Part shown: positions 27,455 to 30,538 of the stretch, in pieces
Layout: each line of letters starts with the position of its first letter
Position numbering within the stretch: the stretch's first letter is position 1
The notes under the pieces: model-generated
Told to the model about the DNA's origin: nothing
Databases searched by the model: none
Seen by the model: the letters and a program-made list of their open reading frames with translations, nothing else
NCBI GenBank assembly: GCA_024644125.1
Contig: JAHELQ010000001.1
Location: 1-54,192, forward strand
Direction: 5' to 3'
Length of the DNA: 54,192 nucleotides
DNA from: Candidatus Aminicenantes bacterium
GTDB taxonomy: Bacteria; Acidobacteriota; Aminicenantia; UBA2199
Program-made: the position numbers and the translations under genes

Positions 27455-30400
27455 TTATGTGGTTACTTTGTAGTCTTTACTCACTCTATCGATTTTACCC
27501 ATATCCATCTTGATAATACGATCGGCCACATCGAAGTAATGGTCGTCGTGTGTGATGACAATCACGATTTTACCTTCGGATTTCATGCGGGGCAATAATT
27601 CACGGTAAAAGAATTTGCGGAATTCCGGATCCTGGTCCGCGGCGATCTCATCGAAGAGATAGATGGGAGAATCTTCGAGGTAACATTGAAGAAGCGCCAA
27701 TCTCTTGCGTTGGCCGCCGGAGAGATCGACGGTGGAAAATGCGTTGTCCTTTACTGTCACCTTGTCCTGCATCCGCAACAGTTGCAGGTATTCCTCCACC
27801 TTGCCATCCTGGTCTTCAAGATCCACATTGTACATCTTCTGGAAGAGGTGAAAATCGCTGAATACAACCGAATAGTATTCGCCCAACCGCTGGGAGCCGT
27901 TGGATGAACCTTCCACCTCGACAGTGCCCTGGTGGGGCTCGTAAAGACCGGTCAGCAGTTTGGCCAGAGTTGTCTTACCGCTACCGTTGCCGCCGATGAT
28001 GAAGGTGATCTCGCCTTTGTTGAATTTCAGATCGACAGGGCCTACAATGAATTTTCCATCTTCGCTTTCGCTTTTGTATTCAAACATTACATTATCGGCT
28101 TTGATGGATTCGATCTCTCCTTCCCGCTGATGCCGCGCTTCCATAACTTTGGGATCCAGCGTGGCGGGGATATCTCTTTCAAATCCCTTAACTCTACCCC
28201 AGGAAACCCGTATGCGGATGATGTTGGGGATCGCGTTCAGTATTACGTTAAATGGCCCGATGAGGAAGAGGAGAATCATGATAAAGCTCATGAGAGTGAA
28301 TTTCGAGATCTCCGGAAAGAGCTCCGGAATCCCAAAACCGACTGCGGCCAACACAATGAGGAGCAGCGACTCCCCTATCAAGAACGCATTGACAAATTTG
28401 ATACCGGATTGGGTGGTTTTGTTACGAAATTCATGGCACACTAAATCGACATCCGAGCTGTATTCCCGTTTTTTGTTCACCTGCAAACTCAATTCCTTGA
28501 AGCCGTCGATCATGCCGTTGATCAACCGCATGAACACATTCTGGGTATCGCGCGCCTGTTCCAGAAGAACCCGCGCTTTGGCCATGACTTTATTGTAAAG
28601 CAAAGAAATGGCCACCACAACCAACACTGTAACGGCGGTCGCCCAAAACGCGATTGTGGCGAGATAGACAAATGCGCATACAATGGTAATGAGGCTTGTC
28701 ACTAGAGCAACCACGATGTTGGCGGCGTTTCCTATCTGGCCGGTATCGTCGCTTAGCGTGGCAAAGACCCTTCCTCGATCTAATTGTTCAAATTTTTGAT
28801 AGGATGTGAGAAACACCTTCCGCACCAGATTGACGCGCATATCGTAGACAATACGGAAGGTAATTTTGAGTAGCTCTGTTTGAATGATTTTTCGGCCGCC
28901 GATATAGATACCGAACGCCAACCCAAAATAGAGGAGCTGGTAATAGAGCTCCATGTTCCCCCGCAAAGAATTGGTGATGAGGAAGATCACCATTGCGTTC
29001 GCCCCGCCTGCCAGGAGGCTGAGAACGATAATCAACGGCAATCTGCGAATCAGTTGGTTTCGCTGGGGAAAAATGCTTGAAAATAGATAGCCAAGGTAAG
29101 TGGCGGCTATCGCTAGAAGCAACATAAACACCGCAGTTTTAAAACTCAACGGAGCCCAAACCAATGTGGTTTCCCAGGAGAGCCCGGTCATGGCATAGGG
29201 AAGAAGGTAGATTCCATATAGATAGGGGCAAAAAAGAATTAACGCTCCAGACATCTTGCCCAACGTTTTTAGGTCGGGAAGCAAGAAACGGCGATTGTCC
29301 TTGAGAATATCCTTGAAGATGGAAATCCAAAACACGATAATTGCCAACAGAAAAATTGCCAACATCACGGAAATGACAGTTCCAGCTTTGTCCACATCAT
29401 TTGGGGGTACTGTCTTGATGTCCGGTTGCTTTCCTGCGGCCATATCCATGATCATTTTACCGATGGCGGTGGTGTAAGTGGAATTGGAATTGGCCATAAC
29501 CGCAACGGCGACCTTTTCCTTCTCATTGAACCCCATGTAACAGGTGAAATTTGGATTCAGGCCGTCGTGTTCCACAATACCGGATGTATCCACATATGTC
29601 TGCCAACCATAGCCATATGACGCGAGCGTCTGCTTGTTGGGAGAAATTGTCGTGTCCCGTTGATGGGATAGTTCGAAAATATCTTTGAACGGGGTGTCGA
29701 TGTTCCCCATATTCAATTGCAGCCAACGAGCCATATCTTCCGCATTGGACACAATGTAACCGGCGGGATTGTTGCCCCTGTATACAGGCGCGTCAAACGG
29801 TCTGGGTGCGAAAAAGCTTATTTTATGGCCAACGGCCATCGGCAGCGATCCATCGCCTTTACCCACCCGGGTCCCGTCCATACCCAGAGGCGCGAAAACC
29901 AATTGCTGCATGGCCTCTTCATATGTTTGTCCGGTCACCGCTTCGATCGCGGCTCCAACCACATCGTAATTGAGGGTGGCATATTCATACTGCGAACCAG
30001 GCGCTCGGTCCAATTTGTATCCCGAAACTTTCATCGCGGTCAGACGAAGTTCGTCGTTTGAATCTCCAGGAGTAATTAGATCTACTGTTTTTGCAGGCAA
30101 TCCGGTTGTATGCCTCAAACATTGCCGGATGGTGGGCGCCACTTTTTTTCCATTGTATAAAAAGTGAAATCCCTCTAGATATGTCGATACCGGTTCGTCC
30201 AGCACGATTCGCCCTTCGTTAGCTAATCTCAACGCAGCAAACGCGGTAAACGCCTTACTGCACGAGGCCAACTGGAACAGCGTTTTATCGGTGACAGCGG
30301 AATCCGCATCATTGCCTTCAACGCCATAGCCCCTTGTGTAAACCTCTCCATCCGCCATCACAACCGCTACGCCGAGCCCGGGAATTTTTCCGTCATCCAT

Positions 30401-30538
30401 AAATTCCCGGATCTGGCGGTCAAATTCTTCCGGCACGAACGGCCGTTCGGCCCTCTCTCCGGCCCATAAACCGGCGAGCGTGAGCATCGCTATAATCATC
30501 GCGGCGGAAATCCGCCGCATCCCTTTCTCTGGGCACAT
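27455..30538 (-). CDS. Fusion protein: ClbP-like S12 (D-stereospecific) peptidase + three TM helices + ABC exporter (TMD + NBD), ZmaM-like
   Basis: 1027 aa with AAGGAGGA SD. The N-terminal signal/anchor is followed by the class-C beta-lactamase-fold motifs ASCSKAF (SxxK, Ser codon 30263-30265) and YATLNYDVVG (YxN). Several blocks recall ClbP closely: FLYNGKKVAPTIRQCLRHTTGLP, PLGM and HDGLNPNFT..AVMANSNS. Multiple TM helices follow. The NBD has Walker A GGNGSGKTTLAKLL, signature LSGGQRKRLAL and Walker B YLFDEIAADQD, as in cyclic-peptide exporters. Confidence 0.85.
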   Translation of the reverse strand: MCPEKGMRRISAAMIIAMLTLAGLWAGERAERPFVPEEFDRQIREFMDDGKIPGLGVAVVMADGEVYTRGYGVEGNDADSAVTDKTLFQLASCSKAFTAFAALRLANEGRIVLDEPVSTYLEGFHFLYNGKKVAPTIRQCLRHTTGLPAKTVDLITPGDSNDELRLTAMKVSGYKLDRAPGSQYEYATLNYDVVGAAIEAVTGQTYEEAMQQLVFAPLGMDGTRVGKGDGSLPMAVGHKISFFAPRPFDAPVYRGNNPAGYIVSNAEDMARWLQLNMGNIDTPFKDIFELSHQRDTTISPNKQTLASYGYGWQTYVDTSGIVEHDGLNPNFTCYMGFNEKEKVAVAVMANSNSTYTTAIGKMIMDMAAGKQPDIKTVPPNDVDKAGTVISVMLAIFLLAIIVFWISIFKDILKDNRRFLLPDLKTLGKMSGALILFCPYLYGIYLLPYAMTGLSWETTLVWAPLSFKTAVFMLLLAIAATYLGYLFSSIFPQRNQLIRRLPLIIVLSLLAGGANAMVIFLITNSLRGNMELYYQLLYFGLAFGIYIGGRKIIQTELLKITFRIVYDMRVNLVRKVFLTSYQKFEQLDRGRVFATLSDDTGQIGNAANIVVALVTSLITIVCAFVYLATIAFWATAVTVLVVVAISLLYNKVMAKARVLLEQARDTQNVFMRLINGMIDGFKELSLQVNKKREYSSDVDLVCHEFRNKTTQSGIKFVNAFLIGESLLLIVLAAVGFGIPELFPEISKFTLMSFIMILLFLIGPFNVILNAIPNIIRIRVSWGRVKGFERDIPATLDPKVMEARHQREGEIESIKADNVMFEYKSESEDGKFIVGPVDLKFNKGEITFIIGGNGSGKTTLAKLLTGLYEPHQGTVEVEGSSNGSQRLGEYYSVVFSDFHLFQKMYNVDLEDQDGKVEEYLQLLRMQDKVTVKDNAFSTVDLSGGQRKRLALLQCYLEDSPIYLFDEIAADQDPEFRKFFYRELLPRMKSEGKIVIVITHDDHYFDVADRIIKMDMGKIDRVSKDYKVTT

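Follow-up and report, generated by a model that had tools for sequence, protein, structure and literature searches.

A gene in a contig of Candidatus Aminicenantes bacterium raises the question of whether one protein both exports the product of a biosynthetic operon and activates it outside the producing cell and, if so, after which residue that product is cut. The gene (27455..30538, minus strand) lies in a 54,192-nucleotide stretch of contig JAHELQ010000001.1 (assembly GCA_024644125.1; this whole stretch is referred to here as the window). It encodes 1027 amino acids (aa) and is the final gene of a minus-strand operon of nonribosomal peptide synthetase (NRPS) and polyketide synthase (PKS) genes. 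An initial annotation, made from the letters of the sequence, had described it as a ClbP-type peptidase fused to an ATP-binding cassette (ABC) exporter, and had proposed that the product leaves the cell inactive and is cleaved after a D-residue. We found here that the first of these descriptions stands: collinearity with the zwittermicin protein ZmaM, the match to the ClbP fold and the residues T188, N257, N328, W455 and W461 all agree with it. On the evidence of sequence and a structural model, the fused protein is thus well supported as a prodrug peptidase of the ZmaM/ClbP type joined to its own exporter, as opposed to a generic AmpC, esterase or penicillin-binding protein (PBP).

The polypeptide begins with a signal or anchor helix (30440..30538, approximately aa 1-33, with the helix at residues 5-25 in the model; MRRISAAMIIAMLTLAGLWAG). 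This is followed by an S12 peptidase domain of beta-lactamase fold (29429..30433, aa 36-370), a three-helix ClbP-like membrane domain (29072..29398, aa 381-489), the six-helix membrane domain of an ABC exporter (28172..29056, aa 495-789) and an ABC nucleotide-binding domain (NBD; 27479..28108, aa 811-1020). The family matches far exceed chance level (E-values of 1e-44 to 1e-66). Pfam recognises Beta-lactamase PF00144 at aa 39-354 (E 5e-66), ABC_membrane at 532-737 and ABC_tran at 834-965, and the NCBIfam model TIGR01194 for cyclic-peptide exporters covers aa 503-1016 with 329 bits (cut-off 286). The full ABC half-transporter that had been claimed is indeed present, with Walker A (GGNGSGKT) starting at aa 849, the signature LSGGQRKRL at 939 and Walker B (LFDEIAADQD) at 961. 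An AlphaFold2 (AF2) model was calculated from a 33-sequence alignment, with a mean predicted local distance difference test score (pLDDT) of 76 and values above 90 across most of the peptidase domain. Its order is signal helix, S12 domain, membrane helices 381-412, 423-451 and 464-489 with a short linker helix at 455-461, six exporter helices and NBD. The expectation of about three transmembrane (TM) helices as in ClbP is therefore confirmed by these model helices and by their structural alignment to ClbP.

Overall similarity is not decisive for the S12 subtype, because over the soluble S12 domain alone the Staphylococcus aureus protein Flp (PDB 4gdn) scores about as well as ClbP (154.6 versus 150 bits). 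Beyond the soluble domain, the best PDB sequence match is full-length ClbP (7mde, E 1e-44), which aligns to aa 38-480 and so covers the membrane helices. A Foldseek search with the AF2 model likewise places four full-length ClbP structures at the top (7mdf, 7mdc, 7mde and 7ul6; TM-scores of 0.84-0.87 over about 460 columns), with Flp and AmpC ranking lower. The diagnostic residues are more informative. Prodrug-activating S12 peptidases, a group that includes ClbP, XcnG, AmiB, ZmaM, PamJ and EdeA, differ from the wider S12 family at ClbP position 188, with Ser or Thr in place of Asn, and have His or Asn at position 257; Asn331, which reads the D-Asn side chain, is strictly conserved, as are W460 and W466 of the membrane domain, with P451 and P468 also conserved there (PMC9889268). 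In the fused protein S92, K95 and Y186 align to the catalytic S95, K98 and Y186 of ClbP and are invariant in the homologue alignment. The SxxK motif lies exactly where it had been predicted, with the Ser92 codon at 30263..30265 (equivalent to S95 of ClbP and S89 of ZmaM; PMC9889270). The 'YxN' motif named in the initial annotation does not hold up: the sequence is Y186-A-T188, and the Asn of 'YATLN' lies two residues further on. Since the wider S12 family has Asn at this position, the departure from 'YxN' is itself the prodrug-peptidase signature. Thr188 is shared by 117 of 120 homologues, and N257 is one of the two states allowed at its position. N328, within HDGLNPNF (codon 29555..29557), corresponds to the D-Asn specificity residue N331 and is Asn in all 120 homologues. 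K239 and F242 correspond to ClbP K240 and F243. In the membrane domain P447 matches P451, and the linker between the second and third helices contains W455, T457, W461 and P463 at the positions of ClbP W460, F462, W466 and P468. The class-C beta-lactamase model NF033085 reaches only 85.6 bits on the protein (cut-off 415), which together with Y-A-T in place of YxN distinguishes it from AmpC, and the neighbourhood contains the C (condensation) and A (adenylation) domains of an NRPS-PKS operon. On the question raised earlier of whether the domain groups with ClbP and ZmaM or with AmpC and the esterases, the diagnostic residues and the Foldseek ranking side with ClbP and ZmaM.

The closest characterised relative is ZmaM itself. 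We located it by tblastn against plasmids, in the zwittermicin cluster of Bacillus thuringiensis NZ_CP083117.1, on which zmaJ is annotated; the gene in the zmaM position is labelled there as a 'cyclic peptide export ABC transporter'. It also encodes 1027 aa, in the same order of signal, S12 domain, three membrane helices, ABC membrane domain and NBD. The two proteins align by BLASTP over their full length (aa 34-1016 to ZmaM aa 31-1017; 37% identity over 1000 aa, 690 bits), which upholds the earlier statement that ZmaM is the same peptidase-ABC fusion. Both share Thr188, Met at ClbP position 235, Asn331, W460, W466 and P468, and both genes sit inside an NRPS-PKS cluster. They differ at ClbP positions 92, 257, 330 and 462 (Glu, Thr, Ser and Phe in ZmaM; Gln, Asn, Leu and Thr here) and in host, which is Bacillus in one case and an uncultured lineage in the other. 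A further difference is that a single gene for a HAD-IIIC phosphatase, which by its position we take to be ZmaN, separates zmaM from ZmaO, a C-A(Asn)-T-E protein (T, thiolation; E, epimerisation); no ClbN/ZmaO-like module of this kind is visible in the window. Purified ZmaM cleaves an N-acyl-D-Asn probe, and its inhibition leads to accumulation of prezwittermicin carrying N-lauroyl-D-Asn (PMC9889270).

Comparison with other systems places the fused protein within a known group. ClbP of Escherichia coli, which matures colibactin, shares the fold of the periplasmic and three-helix membrane domains, the catalytic Ser, Lys and Tyr, and conserved residues at S/T188, N331, K240, F243, P451, W460, W466 and P468. 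It is only 27-30% identical, however, differs at E92, K235, H257 and F462 (Gln, Met, Asn and Thr in the fused protein) and lacks the transporter fusion; export falls to a separate MATE protein, ClbM. PamJ (paenilamicin) and EdeA (edeine), both from Firmicutes, are described as members of the same long, ABC-fused subclass of prodrug-activating peptidases (PMC9889268). Flp, an FmtA-like protein, comes close only over the soluble domain: it has Asn at 188, Leu at ClbP position 331 (N328 here) and neither membrane domain, transporter nor NRPS context. The C-terminal 525 aa pass the family cut-off for TIGR01194 exporters of the SyrD/PvdE type, but ordinary members of that family (loci L020-L085) lack the N-terminal peptidase and the three extra helices. 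The peptidase-ABC fusion is therefore an already known design, ZmaM being a characterised collinear example. Its distribution is broader than the Firmicutes-centred published survey of ABC-fused prodrug peptidases (PMC9889268). Our homology search recovered about 120 full-length fused homologues (43-84% identity) in Aminicenantes, Acidobacteriota, Bacteroidota, uncultured Clostridia and unnamed metagenomic bacteria; most come from uncultured organisms, and the annotation of most goes no further than cyclic-peptide transporter.

The explanation that we favour starts from what is shown above: the domain order and fold, the residues of the catalytic site and the pocket, the place of the gene in the operon and the collinearity of its product with ZmaM. 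Two copies of the fused protein would form an ABC exporter that moves the finished NRPS-PKS product out of the cytoplasm. The N-terminal S12 domain would lie on the outer face, held to the membrane by the ClbP-like three-helix domain, where Ser92, Lys95 and Tyr186 would cleave a hydrophobic leader at the N-terminus, at the amide bond that follows a D-amino acid; its removal would set the active compound free only outside the producing cell. D-Asn would most likely be the amino acid recognised, as it is for colibactin, zwittermicin, paenilamicin, edeine, xenocoumacin and amicoumacin; the Asn pocket (T188, N257, N328) and the acyl-binding Trp, W461, are retained. The N-acyl-D-Asn module would then sit in a part of the assembly line outside the contig. 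As a whole, this account of a ZmaM-type bifunctional exporter and peptidase, with a D-Asn leader made by an off-contig module, is one that we hold with moderate confidence. Its parts differ in strength. Homology to the assayed ZmaM makes a prodrug step the expected function, and by this analogy the product is probably exported as an inactive precursor, which is the half of the earlier proposal that survives; the other half, that the E domain in the window supplies the cleaved residue, is not supported in the form proposed. That the cut falls after an as yet unseen N-acyl-D-Asn starter of the minus-strand operon is a reasonable if far from secure expectation.

The operon in question can be followed against the direction of numbering from the right end of the contig. 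It opens with the C-terminal 101 aa of a further upstream NRPS gene, a C-domain end cut off by the contig end (53885..54190), and continues with an A-T-C subunit (50692..53847; code DPRHLALMVK, C motif HHIISDV) and a PP-loop ATPase, TilS/MesJ-like, fused to a B12 radical-SAM (S-adenosylmethionine) enzyme (47953..50676). In the next NRPS subunit (42345..47972) a C-lobe remnant comes first; the A domain, of code DPENIGQIDK, is split by radical-SAM and B12 domains, and T and E domains complete the subunit. A stand-alone C domain of the DCL type, which accepts a D-configured donor (40950..42326; matches to SrfA-C and TycB C1 at E 1e-92 to 1e-96), is followed by an A-T-C-A-T subunit (35987..40978; codes DVRHLAILAK and DAFFLGMTYK) and the terminal PKS module KS-AT-KR-ACP-TE (30565..35997), all on the minus strand. 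The gene for the fused protein starts 26 nt after the PKS-TE gene and is succeeded by a HAD hydrolase and the housekeeping genes ispF, der, parA and parB; in the orthologous JGI contig, whose peptidase is 79% identical, the gene order around the fused gene is unchanged. Both contig ends fall within NRPS genes, and the beginning of the minus-strand assembly line lies off the contig. The guanine-plus-cytosine (GC) content is 39-42% in the housekeeping block (18001-27000; parAB, der, ispF and others) and 47-53% in both NRPS regions.

Several findings weigh against a D-Asn leader. At the position of ClbP Glu92 the fused protein has Gln89, and the salt-bridge partner of that Glu, ClbP K235, is replaced by Met234. 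Glu92 orients N331 and excludes D-Asp, although it is graded highly, not strictly, conserved (PMC9889268). Of the 120 full-length homologues, 98 have Glu and 20 have Gln at position 92, and the syntenic orthologue P0004 (the 79%-identical protein of the JGI contig) has the ordinary Glu, so that Gln89 is a minor variant inside one cluster type. We considered Gln89 as the mark of a separate substrate class and rejected the idea, since Gln and Glu alternate among close syntenic orthologues. The assembly line itself is equally unforthcoming. We read A-domain codes as the ten specificity positions anchored on GrsA. As a positive control, the same extraction reads ZmaO as C-A-T-E with the Asn-type code DLTKIGEVCK, close to the Asn code of the literature (DATKVGEVGK). 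In Wukongibacter (L016), a fused homologue of 40% identity likewise has a C-A(Asn)-T-E module immediately upstream. On our contig, which is truncated at both ends, an Asn code is absent from all eight A domains. This applies to the minus-strand operon (DPRHLALMVK, DPENIGQIDK, DVRHLAILAK and DAFFLGMTYK) and to the plus-strand NRPS (DVAYLGGICK, DVQYVAHVVK, DAICLGIVDK and DGFVVAGVAK) alike. No C-starter domain was seen on the contig either. In related contigs, the five A domains that we read upstream of the B12-radical-SAM gene likewise lack an Asn code; the upstream modules there have hydrophobic codes (DAFWLGGTFK, Val-like; DAFFTGVVCK; DAFFLGCTFK; DVFFFGIVWK) and no E domain. Finally, a second type of Aminicenantes cluster that contains a fused peptidase (L243/L245) shows no Asn module across about 20 kb of NRPS sequence, made up of the genes visible upstream of its peptidase and the larger first gene of L245; the sequence followed there ends short of a cluster start.

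How far these negatives reach is set by where the contigs stop. The initial annotation had suggested looking to the right of the window for a starter C domain and an Asn-type A domain; neither was found in the related-contig modules just described, but all the related contigs reached, including the JGI, ENA and Logan orthologues, themselves end within repeated upstream NRPS genes. Attempts to walk further were fruitless. An exact-sequence look-up with the A-T-C protein (50692-53847) gave no record, a homology search with the 101-aa upstream tail gave no match, and neither a scan of relatives nor a DNA pattern scan of the metagenome collection extended the sequence past the right contig end. 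A genome scan with an alignment of the A-T-C protein found one contig of a metagenome-assembled genome (MAG), itself broken 2.6 kb upstream, and a genome scan for the region left of the plus-strand NRPS gave only generic NRPS matches of 41% identity or less.

The alternative that survives best keeps the prodrug step and moves the cut to a residue made within the window. Here the peptidase would cleave after the heavily tailored internal D-residue produced by the cassette of PP-loop enzyme, B12-radical-SAM-interrupted A domain and E domain (42345-47972). In place of N-acyl-D-Asn, five or more residues would make up the leader, a hydrophobic peptide with that D-amino acid at its end, and the released product would be a dipeptidyl-beta-hydroxy acid from the last two NRPS modules and the PKS module. 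The E domain (approximately 42390-43739) is a true epimerase by its matches to the E domains of TycB, GrsA and TycA (E 1e-86 to 1e-107), and the A-T-E subunit followed by the DCL domain forms the sole E-to-DCL junction on the contig. It was rightly assigned at the outset to the radical-SAM-interrupted module and not to a C-starter/Asn module. Such a peptide, given the hydrophobic upstream codes, could mimic an acyl chain in the membrane groove, and the adjoining PP-loop enzyme could conceivably add an amide-like group. Gln89 would also fit, because the E92Q variant of ClbP retains activity on D-Asn and gains activity on D-Asp, a relaxed specificity (PMC9889268). What keeps the idea alive is the recurrence of the cassette in the second cluster type, seen in an Aminicenantes MAG and a JGI contig (L243/L245), where the only visible E domain is again in the radical-SAM module. 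That cluster encodes a stand-alone PP-loop protein (575 bits to the N-terminal half of the PP-loop/radical-SAM protein), an interrupted A-T-E subunit with code DPENIGHIDK, two DCL-A-T-TE subunits, a lysine-aminomutase-like enzyme and a fused peptidase of 54% identity.

Set against this, the code DPENIGQIDK, which is identical in three orthologous contigs, is not Asn-like (with low confidence, it is closer to published codes for cationic or Gln-like residues), and ZmaM, which cleaves behind D-Asn, has the same peptidase pocket residues apart from the positions listed above. The Glu at position 92 of the syntenic orthologue also counts against it. In these lineages, A domains with a radical-SAM insertion are frequent in internal modules, where they have many different codes and no accompanying E domain, and in the second cluster an internal cut would free one single amino acid. 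The module is an elongation module with at least four modules upstream of it, counting those in related contigs. That a subunit starts with an A domain is no proof of loading, since the 50692-53847 subunit also starts with A and the preceding reading frame ends with C. The proposal of the initial annotation that this E domain supplies the cleaved residue is thus not supported, in view of the non-Asn code, the retained Asn pocket and the upstream modules, and we regard cleavage at this internal residue as unlikely. Two features that might have been taken as signposts were also discarded: the half C domain at the N-terminus of the subunit as the mark of a starter, because C-lobe remnants head several elongation subunits in related clusters, and the radical-SAM insertion as the mark of a prodrug module, because it is found with many codes and without E domains.

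A different source of substrate, or of a second substrate, would be the plus-strand NRPS at the left of the window (nt 1-12606, four modules and a TE domain). Its reading frame is open to nt 1 and starts in the C-terminal half of a DCL condensation domain: the first approximately 200 aa score 114 bits against the DCL domain at 40950-42326 and 25-40 bits against LCL domains. An E-domain module must therefore lie just past the left contig end. The earlier remark that the window holds a single E domain is literally true, then, but a second one must be sited immediately outside it, and an off-contig E module followed by DCL would reproduce the classical arrangement of C-A(Asn)-T-E followed by DCL. 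The two NRPS regions flank the same housekeeping block, a layout that the JGI orthologous contig preserves at least in part, and both have a GC content of about 50%, compared with about 40% for the genes between them. However, the peptidase gene ends the other operon, 26 nt past the PKS-TE gene of that operon, and approximately 15 kb containing parAB, der and ispF separates it from the plus-strand NRPS, so that we consider this source quite improbable. As a separate observation, genes for a PALP enzyme and for the complete shikimate pathway come after the plus-strand NRPS (12786-19058). Lastly, an ordinary S12 enzyme (AmpC-like, an esterase or a Flp/PBP-like D-peptidase) fused to an exporter for resistance or cell wall purposes can draw on the slight lead of Flp over ClbP in the soluble domain, but the Asn188, Leu331 and missing membrane domain of Flp, the score far below the class-C beta-lactamase cut-off, the alignment of the membrane domain with that of ClbP, both strictly conserved Trp residues included, the collinearity with ZmaM and the NRPS-PKS operon setting make it a most improbable reading. 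A small remainder is left for a role outside prodrug maturation or one that we have not considered.

The cluster around the gene is unusual in several other respects. In the 42345-47972 subunit (minus strand), a radical-SAM and B12 insert of about 520 aa (approximately nt 45200-46760) splits the A domain after its first approximately 125 profile positions. MAGs of Aminicenantes and uncultured Clostridia contain many NRPS modules with homologous A-domain inserts (L096, L110, L117, L145, L149, L157, L243 and L245), where the interrupted domains have Thr-, Ile- and Pro-type codes and one protein has two inserts. This suggests that on-line C-methylation may be a general tailoring device in these lineages. 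A different doubly interrupted A domain stands beside another fused peptidase (L007 6-6236, MAG contig CBFDCR010000002.1), with B12 and radical-SAM domains as one insert and a ThiF-like domain inside the C-terminal subdomain, followed by T and TE. The N-terminal 340 aa of the 47953-50676 protein form a PP-loop ATPase with an SGGxDS motif and two CxxC pairs (one source names TilS/MesJ as the relative). This part stands alone in other clusters (L243 7821-8858, L245 10001-11038 and L108 1419-2573), directly upstream of a radical-SAM-interrupted A-T-E subunit; one possibility is that the enzyme forms an amide or amidine on the tethered residue.

Subunit junctions and module content also vary in ways that recur. 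The C-lobe remnant of the interrupted subunit (47211-47948, aa 9-254) lacks HHxxxDG, as do the C-lobe-only starts of three L243 genes (1-3772, 3800-7753 and 9018-14624), and such remnants are present although a full C domain already closes the subunit before them. The remnant looks like a recurrent pseudo-C docking or platform element. The module before the PP-loop/radical-SAM gene differs between orthologous clusters, with DPRHLALMVK here (50692-53847) and DVFFFGIVWK in the JGI contig (L247 1-9979), whereas the C domain at its end is conserved (705 bits), a pattern suggestive of a swapped module or A domain. At the other end of the line (30565-40978, minus strand), the hydrophobic code DAFFLGMTYK precedes KS-AT-KR-ACP-TE, from which we infer that the product might end in a statine-like gamma-amino-beta-hydroxy acid. 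In a further locus (L164 1-13108, JGI Ga0617940_0000008), the neighbours of a 56%-identical fused peptidase include genes for a 3-hydroxyacyl-CoA dehydrogenase, an ACP, an acyl-CoA dehydrogenase and a stand-alone Ser-type A domain, a set similar to the genes flanking zmaJ in the zwittermicin locus (L086), which make aminomalonyl-ACP. An alanine racemase gene is also present in L164.

The fused protein flags an uncharacterised NRPS-PKS cluster of an uncultured bacterium as a probable prodrug-type pathway. To our knowledge, the prodrug design shields the producer from a potent compound in all the cases studied, namely colibactin, zwittermicin, paenilamicin, edeine, xenocoumacin and amicoumacin. 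The boronate inhibitors directed at ClbP, together with fluorogenic probes, could serve directly in finding the precursor. The fusion design is already known, and the interest of the locus stems mainly from the unusual cluster that surrounds it. A cleavage-site residue other than D-Asn would extend the known prodrug logic, and a cut after the internal residue of the radical-SAM-interrupted module would, if true, constitute a new prodrug motif for assembly-line products.

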